A DNA stretch of 63,748 nucleotides, counting the filler, from Hausera hauseri (taxonomy: Eukaryota): NCBI GenBank assembly GCA_046269625.1. It is 11 parts of 11 records of this genome, joined end to end, with 100 filler letters (N's around TTAATTAATTAA, not from the genome) between each part and the next. Parts side by side here need not be neighbours in the genome. Positions count along the whole stretch, not along the records: positions 7,480 to 14,884 come from JBJURY010016899.1; 10 more parts are not named here. The stretch is one strand, 5' to 3'. Shown in pieces: positions 5,142-43,283 of this stretch. Below the pieces are notes generated by a model. That model did not search any database. It was not told the origin of the DNA and worked only from the letters and a program-made list of their open reading frames with translations. The stretch's first letter is position 1. Each line of letters opens with the position of its first letter. A program made the translations under genes and the position numbers.

Positions 5142-7109
5142 TTAGTCATCGAGATCAATGCTTTCTTCGGAGATTCTGCTGATTAATAGATCTTGACAGT
5201 CCGCCTTCTTTCCGATCGGGACTCGTTCTACTGGGATAAGGATTGTTTGTCCATTCTTGAGCAACAGTACATATTTTAGGTCTGCCTGTTGATGGCTCTT
5301 CTCCAATGAGTGGGCGACTTGATCTTTTATTAATTTTACTTGTAGTCTAGTATTGAGTTTAACTCCAAACTTGATGGGTAACTTCAATACTATTTGAGTG
5401 TTCATATATGGGAGAAATGAATATTTATTCTCCATCCTCTGATAAGCGAATCCGATCACTAAATTCCTCTCTGAATTCCATTTACTAATTTCAAATGACT
5501 TAATGGGTTTTTCAATATAATAAGGTCGATCCACTGTATAGACTGGCACAGGGAGATTGAGATATCCACTTTTAATGATTATACCGAAATTATAAGTGAC
5601 TTTTCTTTGATTAGTTAGCGTATACTGTATAATTTCGGACAGTTGATTAATTTCTATTGTTTCCGTTTGGGTTTGTTTATTGTACTGTAATTGAGTCTCG
5701 GTCCAATTTGATTGTTCCAAATCATCCTGATCATCTTCTGGTGCCATCAATTGCAGTATATCCTGTTGATCAATAATCTCTTCTGAAATATCTGAACCAA
5801 CTTCATCTACCACGACATTTGGCGTATTCAGTTCTCCATCTTCAGTCATCTGTTCCATGATAGGTCTATTGGTGTGGGCTTCAACATGATAGACCCAAGC
5901 GAAATCTATCAAATATTTTGTTCTATTATAAAATAGATCTCCGTGATCAATTATATTAGCCTGGAGAGTTTGCGGCATCCAGCTACCATCTTGCAAGTTC
6001 TGAATAATTTTGTAGATATCCATGGTTAACTCCCATCTTCCCATGGTATCCTGATCATAAGAGAATCCTCGGACAACCTTAGGTAATTTTAGTTCCTTGG
6101 CGACGTTAGTAATATCAATTGTATTGAAGGACTTCCCGGTTACTTCTGGATGTTTGAGTAGATCAATGACGCCAGCAAAATAATTGGTAGGGATATCTAG
6201 AAGTTGTATCATCTTTTGGGTTTCGATTCCCACCACGACGGCACCAAATAACCACTGTACTACTTCCTTGGTGACTTCATATATATCTACTCCGAGGCTT
6301 TCTAGTAATTGAAAGTTTATCCCATGTCTTCCTGAATTACAATTATGGATCTTCTGTCTGCTGACCACTAACGATCGGTATAATATGGTTTTCGCCGTAT
6401 TTGTTATTAGCACTTCCAACGGAACAGGGGAATTATCATGTAGAAATCCCACTGAGACTGTTAGGAATCGAATTGTATTTGATTGTCCAGTTTGAATAAA
6501 ATTGAGTTTGTTATCTCTGATCGCCGTAGGAGGATTTTGCACAAAGATTAGTGGTCTTGGTAAGGCTAGACTCTTTTCCGGGATGATCCACTCGATCATC
6601 ATAACAATTGGTATCCTTATTGGTCTAATTTGAATGTTATTTGTACTCATAGGAGTACTGAATGTCAGTGTTTCTTCCTCGTATAGCGTTGCCACATTAG
6701 ACATTGTAAAATATGCATTCTTTGAGGTTTTTAGCACAATTGTTCCTTTTGCGATGTGGATGGCCAATCCTTCAATAGAAAAACATTCGGAAACTACGTC
6801 ACTGATAGAAAATTGATGAGATTCGGTAATATTGATGATTTTGAGATTTCTGTTTAATGCTAAGCCATACTTCAGATGATTTGGGATTTTTGCTACTTGA
6901 AGATAGATCGACTGAGGATAGATACATGCTTGGCGTCTAATAACGTTATAAAAATTCTTCGTCATCGTGTGGGAAGAGGCCGAAGCCTTTATACTATACT
7001 GCATTAAAAGTTCCTCAATTGGTAGAATGTCGGCGTGAAACAAAGGAAAAGCGGTCGTAGATATGCTTTGGTGAGATATTTTGTTTACTTGAGGCATCTG
7101 AAAATTCAT
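5142..7109 (-). CDS. Intact intronless ~655-aa protein with a central DEDDh (ISG20/REX4-like) exonuclease-like domain lacking catalytic residues; probably a mobile-element or viral accessory gene
   Basis: 720-codon open frame; likely start MNFQMP at 7109 downstream of TATAAAA (7205-7211). Segment FLTVSVG..LEVLITN..TILYRSLV..IHNCNSGRHGIN..EVTKEVVQWLFGAVVVGIE..IQLLDI follows the spacing of the REX/ISG20 pattern; acidic stretch follows. Confidence 0.65.
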   Translation of the reverse strand: MNFQMPQVNKISHQSISTTAFPLFHADILPIEELLMQYSIKASASSHTMTKNFYNVIRRQACIYPQSIYLQVAKIPNHLKYGLALNRNLKIINITESHQFSISDVVSECFSIEGLAIHIAKGTIVLKTSKNAYFTMSNVATLYEEETLTFSTPMSTNNIQIRPIRIPIVMMIEWIIPEKSLALPRPLIFVQNPPTAIRDNKLNFIQTGQSNTIRFLTVSVGFLHDNSPVPLEVLITNTAKTILYRSLVVSRQKIHNCNSGRHGINFQLLESLGVDIYEVTKEVVQWLFGAVVVGIETQKMIQLLDIPTNYFAGVIDLLKHPEVTGKSFNTIDITNVAKELKLPKVVRGFSYDQDTMGRWELTMDIYKIIQNLQDGSWMPQTLQANIIDHGDLFYNRTKYLIDFAWVYHVEAHTNRPIMEQMTEDGELNTPNVVVDEVGSDISEEIIDQQDILQLMAPEDDQDDLEQSNWTETQLQYNKQTQTETIEINQLSEIIQYTLTNQRKVTYNFGIIIKSGYLNLPVPVYTVDRPYYIEKPIKSFEISKWNSERNLVIGFAYQRMENKYSFLPYMNTQIVLKLPIKFGVKLNTRLQVKLIKDQVAHSLEKSHQQADLKYVLLLKNGQTILIPVERVPIGKKADCQDLLISRISEESIDLDD

Positions 7110-7185
7110 TATCGATTTGATTCTGGTTCTGCGATTGAGCTGGAATTGTGGTTTAATTGCTGCACTGTTTTGCGAAAAGGGATCT

Positions 7186-7368
7186 GAATGAGAAATTTCA
7201 TGAGTTTTATAGTTATTTTGGTGTGTGTGTGTGTCTAATGACCACCACATAACGAATGAAAAGGAAAATACTGTTCCTAGTGTGCGTGGCGCGGGTGTAT
7301 GCATGAATAATTGCGATGACGTCAGCTGTGGCTGGTCACGCGATTTTATCGGGCAGTAGCACGTGCTA
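7186..7368 (-). promoter_or_regulatory. Compact Pol II promoter for the 5142-7109 gene
   Basis: TATAAAA (7205-7211, minus), Inr-like TCATTC (7186-7191), CRE TGACGTCA (7317-7324), palindromic E-box TAGCACGTGCTA (7357-7368). Confidence 0.5.
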
Positions 7369-7379
7369 GTGCTAGTAAG

Positions 7380-7479: not shown

Positions 7480-7613
7480 GTTGAGGAACTCTTCGCCTTC
7501 TCGGTCATACTTACTCTGCTGAAATAAAAATAAAGGTTAAGCCTAAGACAGATCATTGTTTTGAAACAAAACATTTTATCTGTCTGATGATAGGATAACC
7601 TGATCTGTAATTG

Positions 7614-8920
7614 TCAGGTTATGCTATCATAAAGTTTGTCGTGGTACCCTTTTCCCCGATTATCTCCATTCTGATTTTTACCGCACTTCTTACAGTTTTT
7701 GGAGACTAGAAAAATCATCGCTGTTATTATGACCAGAACGGAAATTGACACACCAATTATAGTGATTATTGGTAAACTGTTCGGTTAGGTAGAACTTTGT
7801 GTCGTGAACACATTCAGAGTGCTAGTATCTTTATATGACATCACTTCAATTTTATTACCAAGTGTTCGTACTGTAAAAGTTTTAGGGTTTTTACCCTCTG
7901 CGGTCATTCTGATTATATATTCATGTTGTGGGCGTAACGACTTACATACTGTTCCCAAACAATTTCTCTTTAGAATCACAACTTGGTTGGTGTGCTCGGT
8001 GCGACACTCAATTTTAACGTTCGTATCTAGCGTTTCTTCAGCGTAGAATAGAATTCTATCATTCTTCGTTATGATTCTGACGGGTATAATTCCTGGTATT
8101 TCGTCCGTAGTGATACTCGTAATACGGTGAGTTGTACTCGGCGCCGTGGATGGTTTTCCCGTAGTGGTCGGAATTGGGAGTTCCCATATTTCATTCTTTG
8201 GGCGATATCCTCTAAGGAAAATGCTTCGTTCACCTGGATAGGTATCGTATAAATTAAATTGTAATTGGTATCTTTGCCCTAATTGTATTATACAGCATAC
8301 TGTGGAGCGTCGCTTTCCCAACGAACAATACGCCGGTCTAGGGATAGAAGTGTTCGCTGGTGTAAGCTGGACAGAAATTTCCTTGTCTTCTGGTACTCCG
8401 AATTTGGTCCTAATCCGAATACATTGATTCTTTAAGTCCTTGTAAATTCCCACAATGTTGTCATCTAAAATTCTGTTAATCGGATCAGTGCTTCGAATTA
8501 TTTCGTCCGTTTTAGCTTGATTTGCGTCCTTCCGTTGTGGCATTCGAATTGTGAGCTCTGAAGCTATGTCGGCTTGGGCTCCAAATTTATAGGAATAAAA
8601 CAGCTGAAAGCTATATCTATAGACTTTCCCGAAATCTAAGTTACAGCATCTTCTGTGACGCCCGTATGGAAAATCACACACTCTTATATCGTCTCCAGTA
8701 GCTACGAATGTTATTTGAAATCCTATGTGGCTCTGAATAGGTTCGTCTGTTTCAAACCATGCACATGGTTTACTCCAGTCCATATCGCGTACTCTAAGTG
8801 TCTGTAAATTTTGGATATACTTTTGTTTCTCGGTTCTAGCGCTCGATTTCGCCATAGGCATGTATGAAGCAATTAATGATAAGGCTAGGACTATTTGTAC
8901 ATAAGATATTGGCCTAGTCA
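7614..8920 (-). pseudogene. Type I membrane protein fused after integrase: signal peptide, three FN3-like domains, Thr-rich linker, TM, short tail (one TAA at 7785-7787)
   Basis: After the IN GPY module and RRYNLRS: YVQIVLALSLIASYMPMAKS; repeats CCNLDFGKVYRYSF / CCIIQLGQRYQLQF / CKSLRPQHEYIIRMTAEG..FTVRT; beyond the TAA the frame reads PNSLPIITIIGVSISVLVIITAMIFLVSKNCKKC..YHDKLYDSIT*. Confidence 0.7.
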
Positions 8921-9200
8921 CAATTGATGACGTCTTCTTTTCTTTAGTTGAACGTAGATTATAGCGCCTATTCGGCCTTATTTCGGTTTTGACTACCCTT
9001 TGGACTGATGTGACTTCCTCTTTTCCATTCTTATTTATGTAAACTGTAGTCGGCGTAGTCCTTGTAACTTCGTAAGGTCCTTTCCCTGTCCTGGTAAGCT
9101 TAAGAGATGTGCCTTTTCTCGCTACCGGGTAGTGCACATAAACCCAATTTCCTGCTTCCCAATCATGCGGTTTAGCCTTTTTGTCATATTGTCCTTTAAA

Positions 9201-12200
9201 TTATTCTTGGTATTCTTTAGATAATTCTTTGGCTATTTCCCAACATTTCTGTAATCTGGACTGCAATACTTCAACGAAGTTTTGCTCTAAATCCTCCGTT
9301 CGAGCTGTATATGGGATCAATCTTAGGTCTGTGGGCAATACAGCTTCTCTACCATACGTCATAAAAAATGGCGTAAATCCTGTTGCCGGATGAGGGGTTG
9401 TATTAATGGCGAACTGTGTGCCCTCCAAAAACTCATCCCAATCCTTTTGGTCTTTCGCAACTACTGTTGACAAAACCCGTATAACGGTTGCGTTCATTCG
9501 TTCGACCATTCCGTTACATTGGGGGTGATAAGCCGTGGTAGTTAATCGTTCGATCTCAAAAATCTTGGAAATTTTCACGAACAACTTGCTCGTAAAGTTT
9601 CTTCCTCGATCTGCCAATATTTGTTCGGGCAGCCAGTATCTACAGATGATTTTCCGTACTACCGCTTCTGCTAAGGTCTCAGCCTTTTGATCCATTAATG
9701 CTATAAGTTCAACGAAGTGAGTCAGTCGGTCAATACAAGTCAGAATATATCTATTATTCTTGTGAGTCGTAGGCAACGGTCCTACAATATCCATAGACAT
9801 TGCTTGCATTGGTCTATCGGGTACGTCAATAGGCTTGAGTTCAGCCACATAATTCTTTACTTTCTTCTGTTTGGTTGCACATACTTCACAAGCATTCACC
9901 CAATTCTTTACGTCAATGTAGATGCTCGGCCAGTAGTATTTGTTTAATATTCTTTCCAACGTCTTTTCCATGACATGTGTCCGGCTAAATATGAGTCATG
10001 TTCAGCCATGAGCACTTCTGCCCTTAAGTCCTTTGGTATGACGACTAGTTTTCGTCCCTTTCGTTCGTAATATAATACGTTCTCTTGATTGGAATCTCCA
10101 GTGGTGCAGTATTTGTGGCCATATCTTCGCAAGTGCTTCCACAATTGGTGTCCTCTGGGGGTTTTATTATCGTTCACGAATTCTACGATTTGCCGTATAA
10201 CATTGTCCTTTCGCTGTTCAATAGTAATTTTTAGTGCCTTGTCTAAAGTAAGGGTTCGTTGTCTCTCTACTAAATTTTCGAGGTGAGCCCTCCTCATTAC
10301 TGTCACTGCGCTAGTTTTGGTTTTAAGTCTAGATAGTGCGTCGGCATCAACATGTTTGTTTCCAGGCTTGTATTGAAATTCGATGTTGTATCGTGAGATC
10401 TCTTCAATCCATCTGTTTAGCCTACAAGTTGGATTGTTCGCTCTACCCTTTAGAGTCGTAACTGCCTTATGATCTGTGACGATTATAATCTTTTGTCCGT
10501 AGACGTATACATTAAAATGTCTCAAGGCTTCTTTTACCGCTAATGTTTCCAGCTCTGTTACGGAGTAGTTCTTCTCAGCTTTCTTTAGTGAACGTCCTCC
10601 ATATGCAATTGGATGTTCCAGTTCTTCGTCTTCTCGCTTTTGTGCTAATTCGTATCCAATACCTTCCTTACTAGCGTCTGTTTTGATTATGAACGGTAGA
10701 TTGAAGTCAGGATATCTTAAAACATGCTCACTAGTTAGAATTTTCTTCATCTCATCAAAAGCCTTTTGTTCTACGTCGGTCCATTTCCATTTGATTCCTT
10801 TTTTCAACAAACGGTATAGTGGCGCATTTATTTTAGCGTTTTCTGGCACATAGGTGGCATAATATCCACATAATCCCAACCAATGTCTTAGTTCCTTTTG
10901 GTTCTTGGGTTCTATGCAGTCTGATATTTTACTCAATAATGACTTATCCGGTTTCGATCCTCCTTCTCCTACTATATGTCCAAGGTATGATACGGCATTT
11001 TGGGCCCATTTACACTTCTTGGGGTTCAATTTTAGTCCTGCCTGTTCCAATCTCATAAGTGTATCCTCAATATCCTTTAAATGGTCCTGTTCTGTTTTTG
11101 ATGCAATCATAAGGTCGTCCAAGTAGGCGAATGCGTGTTCCAGTCCCATCAGCATTTGGTTCATCATACGGGTAAAGATGGCTGGTCCGGTGGTTATCCC
11201 AAATAGCATAACATTAAATTCGTATATGCCGTCGTGTGTCTTAAATGCCGTTTTGTAACGGTCTTCTTCTTCTATTTCTACCTGCCAATATCCAGATTGC
11301 AAATCGAGTGTAGTAAACCATTTTGCTCCCGAAAGTCTGTCTAAAGCTTCCTTTACCGATGGTAATGGGTAAGAATCTTTCATCATCAATGTGTTTAACG
11401 CTCGGTAATCGATACAAAATCGGTGCTTACTGGTACCTTTTTTCTTAACCATTAATATCGGTGAATACCAAGATCGATAGCTCGGTCTAATTATGTCGGC
11501 CTTTAACATTCGTTCCACTTCCTTAGTTATCTCTGGTCTTAGCGAATGTGGAGGAGGATACCATTTTGGCATCTTTTGATCTTCCAAGTCTATTTCATCG
11601 TTAGATCCAGGCTTCTTCTTAAGCGGAATTGTGAGTCTTAAAGCTTTCGCTCTACCAATATCTTCTTCATCTTTTGCGATAATTGAGCTATAGCGACAAA
11701 GTAATTCGTAGAATTGGCAATACGCTTCTGGCGAAAATTTTGTTTCAACGTGGGACGGAAATTCGGCACCCCTATACGGCTTTTCTTCAATAGTAATTGA
11801 CGAAACTCTATGCGTATGTCCCAAAGTGGTATTGGCGTAAAGTTTGATCGCAGTAGGTGCGTTATTCGCTATCCTAATGGGTACACGGCCGGTTGATACT
11901 CTCGTTAAGACGTTGCTGAGTGTAAGATTTGGGTTAAGCGATTCCTTCGGCTCGAAATATACTGGTTGATCGTCGTCTTGCCGTATTTGAGCGTATATTA
12001 ATAATTCAGTTCTAGGTGGTATGTTTTCGTCTACCGGAATCCATACCTCTCCTAATTTCCTATCTTTGGTGGTTTTAACTCCTTTTATTGGGCCTAGTTC
12101 TATCAGTTTGCCTGCATTGAAATCTATCGCTATATTGGGCAATTGTCTTAATAAGTCGCATCCTATTACTACGTCATCCGTCAATTGTTCCATTACGGAA

Positions 12201-12553
12201 AATTCGTGATGAAAAGATTGTCCCATTATGTGAACTTCTGGTTTCCAACGAAATTTGCTTTTTGATGATTGCCCGAAAGCTCCAATACTACCTGGATCAG
12301 TCGTGGGAGGTGGATACAGTTGTTTCCGTAAGAACTGTGGTATTGAATCGTACTTTATCAGCGATATCTCTGATCCTGTATCGATTAGCGCATAAACTTC
12401 CCAGTCTTCCAGCTGAATTTTTGCGAAGGGTCTTCCTTCGATTACTGTACCATAATAATTCGGTGCTTTACGAGGTTGTCGGACCATGGATACCTTATAA
12501 CCGTTTATAGTGACTTCTGTACTTCCGACCGGCTGGTCTACTAATTGTCTCAA
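9201..12553 (-). pseudogene. pol: Pol: aspartic protease, RT, RNase H, integrase (Ty3/Gypsy order)
   Basis: ALIDTGSEIS; RFCIDYRALN; LDLQSGYWQV; YLDD; KTDAS..IAYGGR..NYSVTELE; HDSYLAGH..CEVC; MDIVGP..DRG..GMVERMN. Confidence 0.97.
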
Positions 12554-12871
12554 TTTCCCGATTAGATAGAGTTCGTTATCTGTACTAGTCGCATTTTCTA
12601 CTCCTTGGCCTCTAACTGGGGGCTGAATATTCGAGTTCTTGAGATTTCGTGTCTTACTGCGTCGCGTAAATATCGATTGTATTTCGTTTGGCTTGGGTAT
12701 TCTAGGCGAATAGATTATACCGTGGTCGTCAACCGCTGGTCAACGATACAGAGCGGATGTTCTTTCCGTTCCGTGGATCTTACGCAATATTCCGTATCGT
12801 TTTGTTCCTTCGTATGGATCCTCTAGATTAATTGGCTGTCGATAGAGGTCTGTCTGACACGAACTCAGAGA

Positions 12872-14884
12872 TTATTTCTCACAATCTTCATATATCGTTG
12901 CCGTCGGCGGCAATACCGGTAATGGTAATTTCATAACGGAGTAATTTTTATGTCGGCCTATTCTGGAGGTGGGGTCTCCTCCCTTATGCTCGTCATCGTC
13001 CGAATTATTTCTTCGCATTTTACTTTCTATGAATTTTTGCCTGTAATTAAATATGCGTCTTTTACGCTTTCGATTGTGATAACCCACATGTCGCTCTACC
13101 TCTGTTTTCCATTTACTTTCTTCATAAGCCCTCAAAAAATTACCAAAAGGAGTGATAATGGCTGTTAGGATTTTGCATGAGAATCCCGTTAAGGTAAATA
13201 TCTCGTACCCATTTATAATCGCTTGGATTATCGCTTTTATCAATTGAATCAAGAAGTATATCGCTAGAAATCCTGACGCGGCTTGTCCGAATATAAGGAA
13301 TCTTTCCCAAATCTTGTATAATATTTCTGTGGTTACCTTTTTGTAATAGACAACACCTAGCAACGACTCCCATTTCGCTTGATATCGTGAATCTTCCAAT
13401 ATTGTGTGCATTGCTCTGTTCAATTCGTGCGTTTGCTGACGAGGAAAAGCAAGAAATTGTCTGAACGCCTCTACTTCTTTCGGTCGATAAATACCTTTTT
13501 CGGCTGTGTCCTGAAATTTATCATCAGTTATTCCTTTTACTAAGTTTGTGCCTGTCAACTTGATGGGTGGTGCAATAATACCACCGTTTGGCAAACTCAC
13601 CCAATCGGTTCCGCTTCGCCTAAACATCGGCTTTCCTAAGCTGGTTTTACAATCTTTCAAAACCGTTGGTTGAGTGGCATTCGTCAACAGAACTCTAGTA
13701 ATTGGCGTTGCCAATCTCGGTATATCCTGATATATCACTGGAAGCTCTTGTATACATCTCTTCTCTTCCACATTAATCGGTACGTCTTTCTTCTCGCACT
13801 CATACGTCAATAGCACTTCTCCGGTTACTCGTCCGAAAACACCTTCCTTCATCGGAATTATCAGTGACGCCAGCTCTGGATTGGCATAGATTAGAGCTAA
13901 TTTAGTTCTCATAATTTCCAAGTCTAATTTACAATCGTTTGTTACCATTTTGTGGTATAACTCGGCTATTCCGGCTTGTCCTTTATAGTAAAAGTAGTCA
14001 TCTCTATTCTTCAGATAATCCTCGATTCGGATATCTTGAGTCTCAAGTTTAAATATTCGGGCATTTATTTCAGTCTTAGCTACAAAAAAAGCTTCGTAAT
14101 TAGTAGCATACATTACGACGTCGCGTCGAGTGAGCATAGCCTTCTTCACAAACTTTAATCCATGGGCATCAGAAATTAATATGGTGGAGGTGGACTGTTC
14201 AGCTACATCTTCGCGTGTTTTAGAATTAGTCTCTATATTAGTTATGTACCGTTTTCCAGTCGTTTCGTTGAATTTGAGTTCTTTAATCCCAATGAAATTA
14301 CAATCGGTTTTAGCTGGTGGTTCCCAAATTACCACTGAGCTCCGAAATGGACAAGTGCCGTCCTAGATGTGACATTTGTGGTTCTCGGTGTAGAACTTGG
14401 TGACACTGTGGAACATTACTTTCTGTATGCGCATTTCGGTTTCGTAAAAATCCACTACTACAATGTTTTGCTTTAATCCCTTTCCCGTATCGTATTCTAT
14501 GCCTTGACAATGTCCGGCGTGCATATCCAGTCGTCCTGCTGCAACCTTATATACTCTAATTATTTTCCCTTGTTGCATCTCCAATTCCATCCCATACCAG
14601 TTTATTCTTCCAGTTTCTCTGGCCTGTTTGCACTTCTGACGCTCTAAATAAATCGGAATCGGCGGGGTGGTTGGTTTGATTATTGACGAGTGTCCGTGTA
14701 TCAATCCACAGTGAAAAATACTGCGAGATCGTCTTAACATACATTCTACTCCATCTAGCGCGATTAATTCCCGTTGTTGGTATAATATGTAATCCTTTTC
14801 CTTTGTCTCCAGCTTGTGCGGTCTCGCATCTTCGCACATTTCCAAGTCCATTAGGGAGTACTTCTGGCCAAGTCTAAATCTGTC
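12872..14884 (-). pseudogene. env: Chuvirus-like (class III/gB-related) envelope glycoprotein, one internal TAG at 14363-14365
   Basis: Cys pattern C..LYQQ..VEC..IFHCG..H..C..G..AGR..GHCQG..C..DGTC..VIWE..C; LYHKMVTNDC; FGRVTGEVLLTYEC..C..ELPV; C-terminal hydrophobic WERFLIFGQAASGFLAIYFLIQLIKAII. Confidence 0.85.
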
Positions 14885-16028: not shown

Positions 16029-19000
16029 TCATTGGTGTTGTGGTGGTCGGAATGAATTTCCTTTGAATATTTTAGACACGAATAAGTATTGGCAGGTAAA
16101 CGAAGCGTAATTGTATTCTTTCCTGATTTGATACCCGCTGATATACGTCGAGGCGGACTTCATACCAATAATGTGAAAAAAATGTACAGAGCGTTCTCGT
16201 TTGTTCTCTAAGTAATAGTAATGTAATTTGGCAAAGATGCACCTAGTGGTCAGCCATATACTGCGTTCATAGTTTCGTGGCATAAGTCTTATAGTCCGGA
16301 AAGTAACGCATGGTTCCTGAGGATCTATATCCACGTAATAGACGATATCCACTAGTAATCGAGTAAGGAAATCGGTGTTAAATATTATTTCTGACCTATC
16401 TGCGTTTTCTATGTCTTCACGTGTTGGAATGTTGATTTCTTGCTTTGGGTTCCATCTGGTAATATAGTGTTTATAATTATCAGTCCACGATTGTATTTTA
16501 TAGGTATAATTTTTATTGTAATCCAATTTACATCAAGTCAAATTATGTCCACCTGTGATCATACAGTTAATGGATTCCTTCATCGAATAGGTAAATTAAA
16601 AATAAAATCGATCCGGGGAGTATATGGGCAAATAGGTCATAAAGCAAATGCCTGGTCTTTATCGACACGAAGAGTGATAGTTAGTCTAACTAGTTCGTAA
16701 TTCACTACGTGTACTTTCGTATGATTAGAAACTGCGGCTGTTGTTTTCAAAAAATATCAATAGTATGAACCTAGTGATACTTATAATACTATCCAATTTG
16801 AGGTAAAAACGGTAACTCACGGGTTCCTGACCATCCGTATTCTGTTTTTGAGACAATACTGCTACTTTTGGTTCTACGAATTGTGGTGATTCTAAGTCTA
16901 TCTGGCGTATGAATTCATTATAAGATGTTCGTGCTCGGGTAACTCGTTGCACGGATACTATTTCACGTGTTCAATCCTTTTTGTAAAAATTAGGTTTGCG
17001 GTCTTGTTTCCACAACTTTATACGGTTCTTGGCCGGTACGCGTTAGTTTCAGTGACTTTCCTATCTTAACAGAAGGATAATGAACCATTATGTAGTCACC
17101 AATCTTGCAAGCATGTGGACGTGCTTTATTGTTGAATTGTTTTTTATATCCTGCTTTATATTTCCCTTCGAATTCTTTAGCTTCTTTTTGGAAATATTCA
17201 AGTCTCCTTAGTAAATCTTGGTATTACTGGTCCATATGATCACTTGGTTTCAAGGAAGATGGTAATAATTCCGTGTCTAACGGCAGCGGTGGCAATCTTT
17301 TTGTAAGTGTAGTGTTAATTGCGAAAGCCATAGTTTTTAAATGAAGTTGCCAATCTTTCTGATCGTGTGCGACTTTTGTTGAAAGAATGCCTTGAATTGT
17401 TCGATTCGTTCGTTCAACCATACCATTGCATTGAGGGTGGTAGGAGGTTGTTAACAAATGTTTGCACTGAAATATCTTTGACAATTTTTCGAAAAATTCA
17501 TTGACATAATATCGTACACGGTCAGTTAACAATTGTTTCAGTGTGCCTAATTCTCCATTATTTCATAGAAGAATGCTTCTGCAACAGTACTACTGGTCAT
17601 GTTCTTCAATGGTATCAGAACAACATATCTGGAGTAATAATTAACAAGTGATAATATATTTGTATCCTGCATCTGAGGTCGGAAAAGGTCCCGAAGTATC
17701 CATTGAACAAATTTCCATAGGTTTGCGTGTTTTGGGAAGACTATCCAGAAAAGGTTTTGCGCGAAAACCTCTATACTTCTGAGTAGAACACATTTTTCAA
17801 GAATGTATCCATCCTTCAATATGTTTATTCATTTGAGGCCGATATTTCGCTCTTATACGTTTCAACGTCTTGTTCAAAGATGGGTTACCTAAAAGATGAG
17901 AGTCATATTCTTGTAACATGAGGGCCTTTATTGCTAGATGTGGTAAAATTACTAATTTCCGTTTACCAACTTTGAGTTTTAAAATATAATCTTCAATTTC
18001 TAATTGTTCTTTTTGTTTTTCGTAAACTTTTTGAATATTGTATAATATTTGATCAACTGAATGTACATTTGTTAGTTATTTTATTTGAACAATGAATGAG
18101 TTTCAAATGAGTTGTAAGGTTTCAATATTTCGAACTTGAATTTTTCTCTGTTCATGTAGCATGTCACTAATAATTTTCTCGTTCAACTGTTTGTCTTTTT
18201 CTTTGTTCTGCGACTTATAAGCTGCGGCCACTATTTCCTCATAAGGAAATCTAAAAATCGCACCCGCATCTGTATTATCCTTTTCGAGCCGATATCGATA
18301 TTCAGTGTCGTAATTTAAAAGCTCTAACTTCCACTTTGGAGTCGGCTTGACACATGTCTATTATCCTTTCGTAATGACAGTAAGGCCTTGTGGTCAGTGA
18401 ATATTATAACTTTGTGATCATAGACGTAATATTCGTAATGTCGTAATCCATCGCGTAGTGCTAACAATTCTAATTCGGTAATGGAATATTCCCTCTCAGC
18501 ATTGTTTAAACTGCGTCCTACATAAGCAATTACGTGTTCCGTTGTCTCGTCTAAACACTGTTTGGCTAAAATGTAACTAATGGCCTTGACGCTGGCATCT
18601 GTTTTGAGAATGAACAAAAGTGAAAAATCTGGATATCTCAATACAGGTACAAATACAAAACGTCGTTCAATTTCATTGAATACTTCTTGATTTTCTTCAG
18701 TCCATTCCATTTTTTGGTCCTCTTTTAATAACTTATATTGCGGCTGATTAATTTCTGCGAAATTCTCGATAAATATAGCGTAAAATTCGCCTAATCCTAA
18801 GCAAGCTGTCATCTCATGTACACTGGTAGGTGGGGGATATTCTAATACTTTGGACAGAAAATCTGGACTGGTGTATGTACCATGGTTTGAAACTACAAAA
18901 CCAAGATATCTAACTTCAACTTTATACTATTCACACTTTTTCGAATTCTGTTTCAGTTTTGAAACTCTGATTCGGTCGAATACGTCTCTTAGTTCGACCA

Positions 19001-29750: not shown

Positions 29751-30341
29751 NNNNNNNNNNNNNNNNNNNNNNNNNNNNNNNNNNNNNNNNNNNNTTAATT
29801 AATTAANNNNNNNNNNNNNNNNNNNNNNNNNNNNNNNNNNNNNNNNNNNNCCTTGATGAATTTCTTCTTGTTTCAACTTAATCACTGCCGCATAAACTGT
29901 CATTTTCGATTTAAATGCTGATAAACTATCTGGTTCAGACATGTTTTTCACAAGTGACACTTACACAGGGGTGTTTATATAAACTTTGCGAAATTTAGAC
30001 AAATTGGGGGTGGAAAAAGTGAAACCCAACAGCGGCCAGAATGTACTAGGGGGTTGGATTAGTGAAACCCAACAGCGGACATATAATGTACTGAATATTT
30101 AATATTGAATATTGATTTCCGATCTTGGGGGTTGGCCGCGTGTCGTCACATCCCTATACTCAGGAACATCGAAACAAAGTAAAATAGGTATACCAAAGGT
30201 AACATTAACAACTTATGAACTTCTAGAACAATTAATTAAGAAAGCTAATCCAAATCAACTCAAGAAGATACGAACAATTACAACAATTCCATTAAAGTCC
30301 ATAATATAACCGCTAGAAATTCCATATCGCAAATTACAAAA

Positions 30342-30590
30342 TTGCTGCAGAATTACAAACTGCACGGAGGCCTAAATAAAGCATTGAAGCTATTATTAAA
30401 GGAATGTGATCAAAATCGACTACAGATGGCATTGAGATGCATAGTGTTCAGCTTTAAAAATCAAACAGAGGTTGATGCCAAGTTACACCATATGGTAAGG
30501 GACTTAGCCCATTACATGAATAAACTAACGAAAGATTGGGTAACCAAACAAGGAGGTTGGGATGACATGCTCAAGAAATTTAACCATACA
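30342..30590 (+). pseudogene. Bcl-2-family-like domain (clear BH2, degenerate BH1)
   Basis: ..LAHYMNKLTKDWVTKQGGWDDMLKKF fits the BH2 W-x3-GGW motif with its preceding helix; in frame with the glycoprotein signal peptide. Confidence 0.65.
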
Positions 30591-30619
30591 ACACTAATGT
30601 ACCCCAGAGATACCAATGT

Positions 30620-32425
30620 CTCAGATTGGGTTGTACAAATTATTTATCTGCTACTATACTTGATAACCGTGAGCAGTTTAAAAACCACGAAAGCGTTAGA
30701 AGCCCATGATTGTTCCAAACTGGAAATAACAACCAGACTTTCACTGGTAGATATAGGTAAATATCAAAACGCTAATCCAATATCAGTAAAGAAAGAAGGT
30801 CCTTACAACTATAACTTGTATCAAAGAATCAGCTATCAACAAGTGCAGGTAAAGGAATGTGAGCTTACAACTGTAGCCATAATTCGTGGAATTCAGTAAT
30901 TATTCCACTCGGACTACCTAAATCCGTGAAAATAATGGCTGAAAATTGCAGAAAAGCCATGGATTCAATTAATGTAGGCCTTCAACAGCCAGTACAAGCA
31001 GGCATAGAAAACGAGTATATTCACGCATAGTTACAGCCGGTAAAATATAGATTGGATACGGTGGAGCTTGTAAAGGAGAAAGTATGATGATAAATGGACA
31101 AAAGAAATTCGCTGTGGTGCAAATAGAAGATTATACTGTCACTATAAAAGAATATAAAGCAAATTTCAATGCAATCGCAGGAAAAATGTTAACCGCACCA
31201 TCCTGTACATATTCCGATGGAGTACCCTAGGAGAATCCAACCTAGTTTGGGAAAAAGTACCTATGTATGAAATACAAGATTATTTATATTATAATGACGA
31301 GTACCAAGAACCTATACATAACCATAATATAAGTCTACCTAGTCCAGGAACCTTGAAACAGACCACTTTCCTAAAATTTTTAATGTCATCCAGTGACAAA
31401 GATGACATCGTACTGGCATGTAAAGGAGCAGTATCTACTTGTGGATCAAATGCAGTTTACTCTACAAGCTATGAAGACCTATTCGTAACAAACATAACAG
31501 GAAATACAGGATAGTTGCTAGCCAAAGATACAAAGTGGTATCTATATACAAATAACAAGATAGACTATATCTATACCGAAAAAATGGATTTGGTCGAATT
31601 ATATAATATGATGGTTTTGGGAGATTGTAAAATCAATCAAACATTGAAGCAACATAACTTAATACTAGCCAGAAAATTCCCAGAACATATTGCCATAATT
31701 ATGGGATATCGCCCTGGAACATTTCGTAGAGTACAAGGTGAAATACTCCACGTGTATCAATGCCCTCCAATAGAGGTAATTCCAATAACAACCACAAGAG
31801 AAAATTGTACAAACGAATTAATGGTCCAAAACAACGATAAAAATATAAATAAAACAGGATATGTTCGCCCTGTTACCCTACCGAAATTAGCTTTGCACCG
31901 TGTTACAAAGACTTCTATCCAGCCTTCAAACTTAGTGACGGAATATGGCCCAAAACACGCCAACCATCTATGATGAACATACCACAGACGATTGGACTAC
32001 TACCATTGGATAAAGGCATGAAATTTAAAGTAAATAAAGAACTCCCCAGCAGCGGATTATATTCATTAACAGACCTGGAAGCAGTAAGAAAACATGTATT
32101 GTTTCAGAATATCCGAGAGAACATCATCACAGAATTTGTATATGCTGTTACAAAAGTATCAGATGGTGTACCTAATTATGGAATGTTACTGCCAATCGAT
32201 CATTTAGCAAGAACAGCTAAAAAGGCCCTTTATGACTTTTGGAATAAACTGCTTATTTTTGGTCAAGTTATATCTGGAGTTTTGGGATATACGTTATAAT
32301 CACAACCATAATAGTCATTAAGACAAATAGGAGCTGCAAGAAATATAAAGAAAGCACGTGGTTCTACATGGCAAATAATGTTAGGATGTTTCCCTTCTAT
32401 GGCGCAATCAGTATTGATGTATTGA
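30620..32425 (+). pseudogene. env: Chuvirus-like envelope glycoprotein (multiple frameshifts)
   Basis: Colinear motifs with 12872-14884 in several frames. Confidence 0.85.
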
Positions 32426-32812
32426 CATACAACGAAACTTGACAAATTAAGAAAAGAACTTCATCTAACTCCAGAACTAGTACAACAGTTACAAGCCTTT
32501 ATTAAATTAACAGTGGAAGAATACCTGGTTAAATATATATTATTGAGAAAAAAAGCTGGACAACACTTCAAACCAAAAGCACCAACATACTACAAACCCA
32601 AACCTATTGATGAATTTCCGGAGTATCCCGAATACGAAGAAATGAAGGTCACATCAATGCATGATCTTCCTATGGCAAGAGATCTAGATGAATACACCTG
32701 TTTACCAAGTACTAAGCACCCACCGAACGTATTCCGACAATATAATACCACATATACTGGACGGAATAATACAAAATTTATTTTTATAACCCAAACCACT
32801 GCTACAACAGGA

Positions 32813-34072
32813 AACAATCCCTATGTCCATGTACGATTTAATGGATTAAATATTATAGCACTACTAGATACCGGAGCATCCGTATCAATGATTCGACATT
32901 CTTACTTAACTGACGATCAAAAAGGAGCAATCATGCCCAGAAATATAGTAATAGCAGCAGCGAATTCCACTCAAGTGCAATTCCCAGGAAAAATAGACGT
33001 CAAAATAAGAATCGACGGTAACCTAAACACTATCACCTTGTTTGTGGTTGATGACAAAATATTGCCAGTGCCTCTAGTCATAGGAATGGATGTATTGTCT
33101 CAAATTTCAGGTCTCTCTATGGACTTATCCACAAAGACACTTAAGTATACTCTAACCAATTTGTCAATCGAGGATATTAGTATGACGTTAACTCATGATG
33201 TTATTATAAGCCCACAACAACAAGTAATGGTGGTGTTAATAATACCGCCACAATACCACAAGCAATATAGCATTTTTGAGCCAAACCTATATAATAACGA
33301 AAAATATAAGATTTCACAATATCCCTTATTTGTACCAAAAGGAGTACAACGTTTAGAATTGCCAATACAAAGCATCAATAAAAAGGCAATCAAATTACGA
33401 CAAAACCTCAATTTAGGACAATTACAACGAGTTAAGGTATGCGCAGCAACATTTCTGGTGGCAGATGAAAACATTGAATTCAAGGACGGCAATTTAAATC
33501 AATACCAACAGAAAATTATTACAGTTATTCCATAAATATCGAGATATTATAGCTGTGAATGATAATGACTTCGACAGAACCAACGTTATTCAACATCATA
33601 TAATCATCATATAATCCGTATAGAATGGGTGAAGTTGACAAATGGTTGAACATGGTATTATTAGACATAGTTTCTCTCTATGGACATCCCCAGTAGTATT
33701 AGTGCAGAAGAAGGACGGAGCACAACGATTATGTGTAGACTTCAGAGCAGTAAATAATGTTACAAAGAAGGATAATTACCCATTACCAAAGATAGACGAA
33801 ATGCTCACAGCCTTAAGAAATGCCTCAATATTCACCACTCTAGATTTGCAACGCGGATTTTGGCAAGTCAAAGTTGCCGAAGAAGATAAGCAGAAAACAG
33901 CCTTCTCTACAGGAACTGGATTATGGGAATTTAACGCTATGCCCTTTGGCTTCACAGGAGGATTTGCCACATTTCAAAGATGTATGAATTTAGTTTTGCA
34001 ACGAGTAACCTGTTGTATTGTGTACATAAATGATGTAGTAATATTTTCTGAAAATTTTGAACAACATCTAGA
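32813..34072 (+). pseudogene. pol: Pol (protease and RT N-terminal part)
   Basis: NPYVHVRFNG..ALLDTGASVSMI..LVIGMD; SLWTSPVVLVQKKDGAQRLCVDFR; LDLQRGFWQV. Confidence 0.95.
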
Positions 34073-34317: not shown

Positions 34318-35860
34318 ATGTCTGTACCATCTTCGCATTTGTTATCGAGACCAGAGCGTAATTAGCAAGTAATTTAATTATTTATTTATTATTAATTTAT
34401 ACATTGTAAAGGGATATCGGAACAATTTTACGATTGGAAACGCAGTGAATGGGCAGTATGTCAGAATGTTCCCCGATGTTTCAGATGATCATTGCAGAGC
34501 ATTGCAGTACAGGTTTCCTGATCAAATCAGTGAACTTATTGTGCCGCCGGAAGGGGCAACATTTCGCCATTTCATGGCGATAATTAAGTATGACGATTCT
34601 GTTGATTTAGTTGTAAATATGTCAAATTATATACGCCTTTCTTTATTGTACAAATTTTATATGAAGGTGGTGGAAGATACATCTTCTACCGGTTTCCACC
34701 ACCTTCACTTCCTTTTTTATTTACGCAACCCTATGCGGTTGCATAGGTTTAGAGTTGTATTTGGGTTTAATTATGTTATCCCTTTTAGGAGTGATATCTT
34801 TGCCGTGTACAAATATCATCAAAAAGATATCACTCCTATTGTGTTTACCCTTCAGATCGGTAATCCCCCAATAGATATAAATAAAGAGAATACCTCGCGC
34901 AAAGCTTTGTATAGAATGTTCGATGATGCTCCCTCGGTCTCAGAGGCTATGCATATCATGAAGGAAGGAGACCGAGCGGAGTTCGTTACGCGACACAAGA
35001 TGTTGCAGTCATATGTCAATAGTAAGTTTAGGCCCAAGGTGTCTGTAAATAATTCCTTTGTTTTTACTATTCCCCCTATAAAATTTGATGTTGAGCGTGG
35101 GGTTAATACGGCTTTGTTGTTTGGATCATCCAATATAGGGAAGACCTGTTATGCCATGAGTCATGGCAAGAACCCACTTATTCTTCATAGTCTCCATGAC
35201 ACTCCTGCTGAGTGGTCATCGGAGTACGATTTGATAATCTTTGACGATGTCGGGTTTGGGGAAATGTTCCCGGACATCTTCTTATCTATTGTCCAATGCA
35301 ACCACGTACATGACAATCGGTCTATACGTGGGTTGTATAAGTCTGTTGTAGTTCCTAGTTCGGTTCGAGTTATCTTTACGTACAATAGTCAGTCCTCCTT
35401 TTGGCCTCGAAAGATGGACTTAAGTCAGAAGGAGGCTTGTTTGAAACGATGTCTCCTGTACGATTTAGGAGATTTTATGCTGTATTGTACAGGGGAAAAT
35501 AGGTATCGTTTTATTCAGGAGAATCGGGTTGACTTCCGTAGGTTAGCTGAGGAGTTTAGTGAGCCTCCCGCTATACCTGTTGTTATTAATCGGGGGCATT
35601 ATCGATCTGATTCTGTTTTATCAACTCCAGAATATGTACCCAATGATTTAGTTGTAAATATGTCAAATGTAAATAATTATCGTCAAACTTATCATCGTGA
35701 TGTTTTATCGCCTTTTCATATGTGTACAGAGGCGTGCTATGTAAATCCCGTTGATTTTATGAATACAGGTAATGACCCTACTGGTGTGCGTACTGCTCCT
35801 AGTATGGGTGAAAACAGTTTGAATTTGACTTGGGGTGTTGACAACCATATCACATTCTGA
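34318..35860 (+). CDS. rep: Endogenous CRESS-DNA-virus-like Rep (HUH endonuclease plus SF3 helicase); probable 5' exon 34318-34368 and 43-nt intron 34369-34411
   Basis: Motif II GFHHLHFL, motif III YKYHQKD, Walker A GSSNIGKT, Walker B IIFDDV, motif C IFTYN, Arg finger ACLKR. Phase-0 GT..AG intron joins ATG 34318 to the Rep frame, but the 5' exon has a TAG at 34363-34365. Confidence 0.9.
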
Positions 35861-40030: not shown

Positions 40031-41149
40031 TTGTGGTGCCGCGGACTAGGGCGCCACCATGGTCTAAATTGCAAATGTTATCAGAAACAAAAAATCCACA
40101 ACGATTCACCAGTTTCATTTGACGAAAGTTGTCGCTATAACAATCCGTCCGCAACGAAACTCACTCAATCTCGATAGTTATGCTTTTTTACTGATCTCAC
40201 AACTTTTGTCAATTAGATGTTCAAACTAATTCATACCAAACACAAAACAATATTCCAAATATGCAGGTCAGTATACTTTTTGTGGGGAAACATAACATCA
40301 TGTAATTGTGGACAAATGAAATTAATCAACCGTACCATCTTTGTTGTACAAATAACCAATCAAACTCCGTCAGTTTAATACATGTAAGAATGATAATAAA
40401 ATATAAAACCAGTCACTCTTTAAGTCTCAAACAATTAGCCTTCGCTGCAGGAGAAAAATTATAAGCAAGTAATTTCAGACAAAATGCAATCCATCCATCT
40501 AGCTGTGTGAATATGAATAAAACAGAAAAAAAAGAAATCATTTCAACACTGCGAAGAAATGTTGGCATATGATGTGTTTGAGACGTACACATTGTGGCAT
40601 TGTAATGTACGATGCAGGAACCAGTTATTATGTGAAACATAATAAAAATTTCTGTCGACTTGATTACGCTAAAATCGGGATTGTGTTGACTATGCAATAC
40701 GCTCAACATGAATTTCGAAATCAGATATTTGGTTAAAAATTACATTTTTCATTGACGTTATTCAAATCTATTTGTTGATAGTTTTAAGTATTGTTGCTTG
40801 ATAGTGTTTCTTGTTAATGAAATTATGATCAATAAAAAATTAATAATTGAAATTTGAAAATAAACATTACCTACGGGTCTTATCGTTGTTGTTTTGGAAT
40901 TAATCTTTTCTCAATTGATAATTGATATAAAATTGGTGTCAGAAACATCAAAGAAACTTTATTTTCGATTGCCTCATTTTTCTATCATGAATGCCGTTGG
41001 ATTATTATTTTCAAAAAATGAATATGATCATTTATCCTCTATCCTGTTGCTAACGTCAATAATGGAATATAAAACACACACAGAAGTTTATGTCAGTCTT
41101 CAATCGGATAAAAGGAACCACAATGAAGGAACTGTTGCTGGTAGCGGTA

Positions 41150-41476
41150 CAGTTCGTCGAAAACGACGAGCAAGTTCAATGTTTAATGTTTCTCAAAAGC
41201 GAGAATTGAAAAAGTTACCGTTATTAAAAGACACTCCGCCAGCAGAAAAAGAATTATTTCTGAAAAAGATTGATCAATGTTCTGTTGTGTTTGTTTTTGC
41301 CATAGATAAGTTAAGTGATTTGAAGGACAAAGAAATAAAACGATCGGCATTAAATGAATTGATTGAATATATAAATTGCAATAAAGGAATTCTAACGGTA
41401 AATCTCTATCTGGAAATTGTTAAAATTCTTGCTGTAAATTTATTTCGAACTCTTCCGCCGTCGAGTAATCCAACTG
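41150..41476 (+). pseudogene. PPP2R5: PP2A B56 (B') regulatory subunit N-terminal fragment
   Basis: SSMFNVSQKRELKKLPLLKDTPPAEKELFLKKIDQCSVVFVF..LSDLKDKEIKRSALNELIEYI..AVNLFRTLPPSSNPT, truncated after this point. Confidence 0.9.
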
Positions 41477-41489
41477 CTGCCCTTTGCCG

Positions 41490-42100
41490 TGCTACGGATG
41501 ATGCATATTATTACGACTACGAGGATTATTTTAAAGCAATTATTGAAGATTTCCATCAGATTACTAATCCTGATATACTCCATCCGACAGCCGAACTTAC
41601 CCAGAATTTGGAAAACAGTAAAACCGCTGCAGCTAACATTAAAAAACGTCTGCAAAACAAAACCCCAATTGGAATAAAAAATCAAATGATTAAAGCATTT
41701 GCTATTGATGATACTGGAATTATTTCCCAAAATATGTTTGATGCTCAAAGCATGAAGATGAAGAAAATGATATTCAGTCTGTGTTTGTTTAACGTGGCGA
41801 TCCTAGAGACAAAAAATATGGTTGTCTAGGGTTTAGTCTTCCGTATGACTTCAACGACACGGATTTTGAGATATCTATCAAACAACTTCCTAGTTTGATG
41901 CATCATGCAGCTAATATTTCAGTGATGCCGTTAGAGATGACATGAATAGATATAAAAAATACAACAATGCTGAAAATACTATTCAAAGCTTCCTTGACTC
42001 ACCCTTCCAAAGCATTCTGGAACAAGAGGTCAATAACTGTAATAAAATGCTCATTCGTATTCATCGAGGCATCAAATTGGAACAAGTACTTTTGGAGCAA
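41490..42100 (+). pseudogene. Scrambled dynein heavy chain C-terminal fragments
   Basis: NPDILHPTAEL; KKMIFSLCLF..LE.KKYGCLGFSLPYDFNDTDFEISIKQL across a frameshift; PFQSILEQEVNNCNKML. Confidence 0.65.
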
Positions 42101-42296
42101 GGTGACAACGTTGGTAGATTTTTTGAAATAAGTAATAATCAAAAATTTGGCCTAACACAATTTCAAGCTATGAAAGAAATATATGATAATATTTCAGGCC
42201 TGTTAACTATTGAAAATAAATGCACATGAGGAGGTTCTTCTATAGATGAAACAGTAGACACTCATTATTCGACGTTTGTGAGTCGTACATCTGGAA

Positions 42297-43283
42297 ATGT
42301 GCAAATTACGAATTACTCTGTTATTTATTGCTCTACGAAATGTGGACGTCGAATTTTTTAAATATCTTATTAATTGTGGAGCAAACGTTTTCTCAACTAT
42401 TGCAGCAAAGCGAAGAAATTTAGACTTAATAAAATTGCTGATTCAACACGGTATCGACCCAAAAGATTCATCTAGTCGCACGGCCCTAAGTTACTGTTTC
42501 ACAAATTGTTTCCGTCCTGGAATTGATTTATTTCTGAATAATATCGCTTGTAAATACACAGTTTCCAATTTTCAACGTCCTGCTTGCATTTCTAATGCCG
42601 TGCTAAAACGCCTGCATATTAATATCGAAAATTGTGAAGCCAGCATCCCGTATTTTGCTTTGGCTCTCCAATATGGTTCGGAAGAGGATGTTTTAACTCT
42701 CGTGCATTATGGTGCAAATTCGAATTCCGCATTTATCCATAATGGTGTAACAGTAACACCCACGTTTTTAACTTTGGAAAATGATTCTTATTCAAATCTG
42801 TGCAATTTGGTCAAATATGGTTACAATCTTAATTTTATCAGTCTACCAATTCAAGAAACATTATTGCATGCAGCTGTTCGGCTAAGAAAAACAAAATTCG
42901 CTCACGAACTGTTATTCTCCGACGTAAATGTTGATATTCGATGTCGGTTAGGTAAAGACGAGCAATATTTACCAATTCATGTAGGTGCTCAGAACGGTTT
43001 AATTGCAATTATAGAGACATTGATTTTGTTTGGAAACAGTGTTAATTCAATGATTACATTGAAAATGGTAGAGCGTTTCAGCCAATTGCATCATGCAACT
43101 TTAAATGATCTTACATCCATTGTTAAATTTCTTACTAAACAAACTTCAGCTAGCGTCGGAAATAATCCCGAAAGCAAAATTGGAAAACTTTATTACAATT
43201 ACAGAAAATTTGCTGTTAGTCACTCCGTTCTTATATTGAACGACCAAAGAACAAGTGTTGGCGGAGTTAAAAAAGGTCAGTGA
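42297..43283 (+). pseudogene. Ankyrin-repeat protein (partial or degenerate)
   Basis: TLLFIAL..KYLINCGANV; LIKLLIQHGIDP; TLLHAAVR..VNVDI; LPIHVGAQNG..LILFG. Confidence 0.8.

Follow-up and report, generated by a model that had tools for sequence, protein, structure and literature searches.

The window analysed here is a 63,748-nt stretch of DNA from Hausera hauseri, made up of 11 separate contigs with N spacers between them. The contig at 7480-14884, on which the FN3 finding lies, carries on its minus strand, in order, a class III envelope gene (env), PR-RT-RNase H, integrase and a region with predicted FN3 folds (Table 1). Pfam profiles give the PR-RT-RNase H-integrase order of a Ty3/gypsy pol, and the class III env (PF24664, E 6.7e-43) lies directly upstream, 132 nt before the pol frame, a trait of the GAG-ENV-POL errantiviruses. 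The copy is dead, broken by a frameshift near 9960 and by in-frame stops at five places (14365, 12874, 12742, 9203 and 7787). The contig begins within env and finishes about 130 nt past the last stop; no long repeat was found inside it, and gag and everything else upstream of env fall outside it.

Env, a spacer of 43 codons and pol share a common frame in this copy, with two stops between them. Likewise, in the third env-pol element of the window (29851-34072), the end of env, its tail and the protease keep to a single frame, which four stops interrupt. In both elements the cytoplasmic tail of env, at 12739-12900 (-) and 32426-32800 (+) respectively, is long, rich in Tyr and acidic residues, and in frame toward the protease. 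The third element also has, at 30249-30899 (+), a weak Bcl-2-like region (Pfam E 0.055; PDB Bcl-2 family E 0.25-2; feature atlas BID/Bcl-2 0.81-0.84) in frame before a hydrophobic stretch and the start of env, and no gag was seen upstream of that region on its contig. Elsewhere in the window there are a 744-aa open frame at 5145-7376 (-) on a separate contig, cut by the contig end and matching no Pfam or PHROG family; a 495-aa frame at 34373-35860 (+) which by eye is rolling-circle Rep-like with a helicase motif and has no Pfam match at E 1; and two decayed-looking frames, at 40864-41829 (+) and 42282-43283 (+), which by eye we take to be PP2A B56-like and ankyrin-repeat-like respectively.

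Table 1. Features of the element at 7480-14884, and of its distant relative in the same window.
Feature	Positions	Strand	Evidence and remarks
Class III (gB/Monjiviricetes-type) env, 5' part	14366..14881	-	PF24664 E 1.7e-12; cut by contig end; TAG 14365-14363
Env, 3' part, including cytoplasmic tail and hydrophobic segments (13270-13145)	12875..14362	-	PF24664 (E in text), hydropathy; TAA at 12874
Env-pol spacer, 43 open codons, frame common to env and pol	12743..12871	-	P ~0.03 for an open stretch so long
Pol PR-RT-RNase H and start of integrase zinc finger	9947..12739	-	PF00077, PF00078 (8.5e-38), PF17917/17919; frameshift near 9960
Integrase zinc finger and core	9204..9995	-	PF17921, PF00665; TAA 9203-9201 private to copy
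Integrase C-terminal SH3-like domain, ending in basic RYNLR motif	8952..9200	-	PF18697 E 0.045, weak; aligns with integrase C-termini of relatives
Internal hydrophobic leader, predicted signal anchor	8862..8909	-	Hydropathy; retained in P0001
D1, predicted FN3-fold domain, Cys pattern C..C..CC	8538..8798	-	pLDDT mostly 75-85 over strands (D1-D2 model)
D2, predicted FN3-fold domain, repeat of D1	8178..8459	-	Fold model and D1/D2 sequence similarity
Thr/Pro-rich linker, D2-D3	8097..8177	-	Sequence; low pLDDT
D3, predicted FN3-fold domain	7860..8087	-	Fold model
TAA in short stalk after D3	7785..7787	-	Private to copy; P0001 and P0002 open at same place
Transmembrane (TM) helix, 22 residues, basic residues on C side	7704..7769	-	Kyte-Doolittle 19-mer up to 2.9
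Cytoplasmic tail of 29 residues with terminal YxxI-T; stop TGA 7616-7614	7614..7703	-	Kept in 3/3 sequences
Second, distant decayed element; its integrase tail, a hydrophobic stretch and a D1-D2 homologue share a frame that holds several stops	16250..16970	-	hmmsearch E 2e-13; tblastn 29% over 132 aa

A predicted membrane protein behind the integrase

A preliminary description of this stretch had the integrase frame running on through a hydrophobic leader and three beta-rich repeats and, past a single TAA, into a TM segment and a tail. That continuity stands: read with X at both TAAs, the integrase frame extends from 9995 to the TGA at 7616-7614 on the minus strand, with 471 stop-free codons as against 82 stops in 1054 codons in the two other minus frames (P ~3e-17). 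The TM helix also lies where it had been placed. The single stop does not hold, as a second TAA at 9203-9201 splits the integrase core from its C-terminal domain, and the main Thr-rich linker sits between D2 and D3 rather than after the third domain. We are highly confident of the resulting order of integrase frame, leader, three predicted FN3-fold domains, TM helix and tail. Of the stretch YHDKLYDSI originally singled out in the tail, the last Tyr motif is kept in all three available sequences (YDSIT, YDRIT and YGRIT) and the remainder is not conserved. The residue two before the Tyr differs among them (K, M or T), and for this reason an ITIM or ITSM in the tail was rejected.

Hydropathy and charge bias fit a predicted type I membrane topology with a cleaved signal, in which the basic side of the leader would be cytosolic, the FN3 domains outside and the YxxI tail inside. 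The 22 residues preceding the leader include seven K/R and one D/E, and the window copy has no Met upstream of the leader's end; the reading of the leader as an internal signal anchor fits because of both features. A splice acceptor before the leader, proposed by eye, was dropped because its phase differs between the first and second elements of the window.

All three beta-rich repeats of the preliminary description are predicted to adopt an FN3-type fold, the models of D1, D2 and D3 each being a seven-strand sandwich that superposes on FN3 modules. D1 and D2, which are separated by a helical link, are clear mutual repeats (E ~1e-8 in a small test set), and D3 is more distant. The structure models rest on alignments of two to three rows: AlphaFold2 returned three beta sandwiches (2-row alignment, pLDDT 58) and a pLDDT of 72.7 for D1-D2 (3-row alignment). 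In a Foldseek search, which yielded 342 matches at E <=0.001, the best was to three tandem fibronectin FN3 domains, FN10-12 (E 5.4e-10), with TM-scores of the full model that are low, about 0.2, because the angles between domains are unresolved in the model. Taken singly, D1 aligned over 79 residues to 9n7g_B (Z 7.4, rmsd 2.4), D2 over 93 residues to 4nn5_C (Z 8.3, rmsd 3.5) and D3 over 76 residues to the ROBO1 FN3 domain 3wih_B (Z 8.4, rmsd 2.4), these Z values of 7.4-8.4 being near the background of that structure search, in which non-FN3 Ig-like sandwiches tie. The feature atlas points the ectodomain to fn3 at 0.88, which we use as a lead only. Pfam fn3 (PF00041) matched neither the window protein nor its relatives P0001 and P0002, Pfam, PHROGs and PDB sequence searches gave the ectodomain no family name, and a BFVD structure search found nothing beyond generic phage and giant-virus FN3 proteins.

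Other copies of the element

Other copies were represented by contigs of two public runs, X1 and X2, placed on the element; X1 is not independent, since it may be the source of the window itself. Altogether 29,980 contigs of X1 and 3,704 of X2 cover the element, filling 30/30 bins, the FN3 region included, in both runs. The element family is clearly multi-copy, depth here not being a copy number. Both stops in the integrase-FN3 frame are private to the window copy. The TAA at 7787-7785 is absent from 99.3% of the depth in X1 (43 contigs) and 98.3% in X2 (15 contigs), the other copies deviating at the first base of the stop (7787), and the TAA at 9203-9201 is absent from 99.8% (87 contigs) and 100% (42 contigs), respectively. 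An alternative genetic code was rejected because both TAAs are private and the copy also has an in-frame TAG and TGA. The indel near the pol frameshift (~9960) makes up a minority of depth (17 contigs in X1, three in X2). The env-pol stops at 12874 and 12742 are not among the 40 listed of 1622 differences and may or may not be private to this copy.

Between 7690 and 9260 the listing gives no indel carried by the majority, and gap-free pieces that are 13-20% divergent span the FN3 region. Among the majority differences over the FN3 stretch, 40 of 143 were listed, which leaves room for a family-wide stop elsewhere; five of them fall between the leader and 9200 and, on checking by hand, none makes a stop. 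Of the 31 listed differences within the ectodomain, 17 fall on the third base of a codon (p 0.011, post hoc), and over all 40 listed sites the figure is 18 (p 0.08, not significant). No single contig of X1 or X2 bridges the integrase-leader junction or the whole stretch.

Relatives of the FN3 protein

A profile search of 1.84 billion representatives found two relatives in all, P0001 and P0002. The first, the one relative among 2193 candidates, is a protein of 479 aa with 35% identity (E 1.7e-78), which is unbroken over leader, three domains, TM helix and tail, retains 10 of the 11 ectodomain Cys of the window copy and is called as a stand-alone protein with its Met exactly at the leader start. 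P0002 is a 189-aa C-terminal piece that starts in the linker. The same search gave no sequence link at E 0.001 to the EG95/45W family of antigens, with which a comparison had been suggested. No related loci were found in viral contigs or metagenome contigs, and 12 RT-related loci showed neither env nor FN3 similarity.

The second element of the window, on the contig at 14985-19439 (-), also has RT, RNase H and integrase, and its integrase is 37% identical to that of the first. Stops lie between its leader and D1, and no Met occurs in the part that corresponds to the stretch ahead of the leader's end. Judged by the integrase tail, it comes out ahead of the 120 relatives (63.9 vs 47.0 bits), although by the integrase core it ranks only 28th of 121. 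Across P0001, P0002 and this element, the FN3 protein is 27-40% identical to that of the window copy. A match to D3 and the TM helix in the second element, seen by eye, was rejected because its score did not rise above that of shuffled controls (best 0.4 bits vs a shuffled maximum of 8.8; 299/300 controls scored). A purine-rich tract near 16000-15985 follows the D1-D2 region of this element.

What usually follows the integrase was surveyed in the best 120 of 355 integrase relatives (>=628 aa). Of these, 31 run more than 150 aa beyond the integrase, and at least four (P0063, P0068, P0051 and P0076) continue in one frame from the integrase through a basic motif and a leader into env, which was recognized by Baculo_F in P0063 (2.8e-9) and judged by eye in the other three. 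P0118 has the same layout after a PWWP domain, its env-like region matching no Pfam family. Because four of the 120 run from integrase to leader to env in frame, the FN3 protein can be said to occupy the usual env slot. The window protein resembles P0063, P0068, P0051 and P0076 in having integrase, basic motif, hydrophobic leader and ectodomain in one frame; the cargo of the P0063 type is an F-type fusogen (shown for P0063), whereas that of the window element is an FN3 stack. Thus, fusion of a membrane protein to the integrase is ordinary for env, and the unusual part is that FN3 cargo lies there with the fusogen upstream. The FN3 profile had no match listed among the 120 relatives (best E 0.79), and no fused Pol-FN3 protein occurred among them or, in a weak search, among 1739 candidates of 661-2000 aa. 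P0070 is a gypsy pol that ends, behind the integrase, in a deoxynucleoside-kinase-like domain (precomputed annotation PF01712).

Discussion

The predicted FN3 fold of the three domains and the frame kept with integrase, which holds for other copies and also for a distant element, support the claim of the preliminary description that one element carries two membrane proteins. The second of these is a real, conserved accessory surface protein and apparently an undescribed one: the literature searched contained no report of an LTR element with an FN3 membrane protein, though an earlier mention elsewhere is possible. Our best overall explanation, which we hold at about an even chance, is a decayed multi-copy Ty3/gypsy element with a second gene for a type I membrane protein of three FN3 domains, made as the last part of a polyprotein and acting as the attachment partner of the class III fusogen.

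Manufacture as part of the element polyprotein is, in our judgement, the somewhat favoured route. By this route, the FN3 protein would form the last portion of the polyprotein, the internal leader would be engaged by the secretory machinery so that the polyprotein threads the membrane, and signal peptidase would cut the leader to release the FN3 membrane protein. Pol would stay tethered to the membrane until liberated by the element's own protease. The YxxI tail might then direct the FN3 protein to the membrane site at which Env and particles collect. There, whether on particles or where cells meet, the FN3 stack could bind a protein of the host surface, fusion being left to Env.

Fusion to the integrase, as originally claimed, is likely, although no contig crosses the junction and P0001 starts at its own Met. 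Could the protein instead be an ordinary ORF3 in the env slot, expressed from a spliced or separately started message, with the pol frame incidental? We consider this unlikely, though it would fit either function. The Met of P0001 at the leader start speaks for it, as do the databases, in which no fused Pol-FN3 protein was found, and the ORF3s of LTR elements are, in the part of that account available to us, 'typically' separate spliced units (PMC5408684). However, the window copy lacks any Met up to the end of the leader, as does the second element at the corresponding position, and once a frame carries a decay stop, gene callers begin at a later Met, P0002 for example beginning in the linker. 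Furthermore, the frame relation is common to two elements whose integrases have diverged as far as those described above.

As to function, a role in attachment or adhesion is what we tentatively propose for the modelled FN3 stack, at slightly less than an even chance. Class III fusogens of the rhabdovirus and baculovirus types are not known to require an attachment partner. These fusogens, and the gB-type errantiviruses described with env alone, count against the attachment reading. In the main rival reading, the protein would be a host-control accessory, a captured receptor-like ectodomain displayed on the producing cell as a ligand decoy, to damp defences or to block superinfection, and this we regard as rather improbable. 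Cytokine-receptor FN3 domains (TSLPR/IL-7R, IFNAR2 and gp130) are among the tied best structure matches, and the tail has a conserved Tyr motif; but the cytokine-receptor matches are at fold level, with about 5-17% identity and no family standing out, and the 29-residue tail with one YxxI at its very end is more like a sorting signal. A single terminal YxxI on a short tail generally reads as such a signal. The host-control reading also draws on company: the weak Bcl-2-like region before env in the third element, and the host-control domains (BCL2, BIR, MATH and RING) that related elements gather, as described for Burro in the portion of PMC6431247 at hand. That the FN3 region is a passenger without an element role, either host cDNA caught by chance or an assembly chimera, is very improbable and largely refuted: although the window copy is dead and database relatives are very few, contigs of both runs cover 30/30 bins, gap-free divergent pieces cross the region, and three other sequences carry homologues at 27-40% identity, one of them in the same position in the second element.

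Several known systems share parts of this arrangement. Nematodes, bryozoans and flatworms carry GAG-ENV-POL errantiviruses with an HSV/gB-type ENV (Chary and Hayashi, PMC13524379). Going by the main text of that paper, in which 'fibronectin' and 'immunoglobulin' are absent, these elements are described with env alone, and other ORF arrangements were not searched by its authors. Like them, the window element is multi-copy and has a Ty3/gypsy PR-RT-RH-IN order with a class III env upstream; unlike them, as far as that text goes, it has a further membrane protein behind the integrase. The giant gypsy elements of planarians, Burro and GYPSM1, have env in frame between gag and pol (PMC6431247, here and below in the sections available). 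Burro resembles the window element in having env ahead of PR in a common frame with pol, a frame that two stops break in the window copy, its accessory host-like domains lying inside one polyprotein, but its env is called a gypsy Env homologue and the accessory domains lie before env. Those sections mention no FN3 domain or post-integrase membrane protein. The Bcl-2-like region before env in our third element follows the order described for Burro (PMC6431247).

A precedent for two surface proteins is the BEL/Pao Atlas virus, which from the text available has a single Gag-Pol-Env frame and separate binding and fusion glycoproteins (10.1101/2021.11.23.469668). The window element is like Atlas virus in that the frame runs from Pol into a membrane protein and in the presence of two surface proteins, GN-like and GC in Atlas. 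According to the same text, Atlas virus differs in its BEL/Pao pol, its class II fusogen, the placing of both glycoproteins after pol and their joint phlebovirus-like origin (10.1101/2021.11.23.469668). In the window element, the two surface proteins flank pol and their folds are unrelated. Thus a two-glycoprotein retroelement is already known, there as a viral pair and here as unrelated proteins. Outside retroelements, the taeniid oncosphere antigens EG95, 45W and Tm16/18 likewise combine a secretory signal with an FN3 domain; on the evidence of the accessible part of PMC2706984, Tm16/18 are intron-containing host genes encoding about 130 aa and one FN3 domain.

A fuller proposal is that an LTR retroelement lineage assembled a two-part entry system, like that of herpes- or paramyxoviruses, out of unrelated components: the class III fusogen ahead of pol, and an FN3 adhesion protein captured into the slot that env had vacated. 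Both would be cut from a single polyprotein threaded through the membrane, with Pol anchored on either side. As a whole, we put this forward as doubtful. The envelope-bearing LTR elements described so far have one env for both binding and fusing. A second, host-like FN3 surface protein kept under selection would mean that a retroelement can divide the work of entry between proteins or bring along a surface modulator of its own, and it suggests what took over the env slot after env moved upstream of pol. It is also a warning that cargo behind the integrase is overlooked when surveys start from gag, env and pol. Finally, the FN3 ectodomain would be a natural receptor probe, and may offer a handle on how invertebrate errantiviruses reach germ or stem cells.
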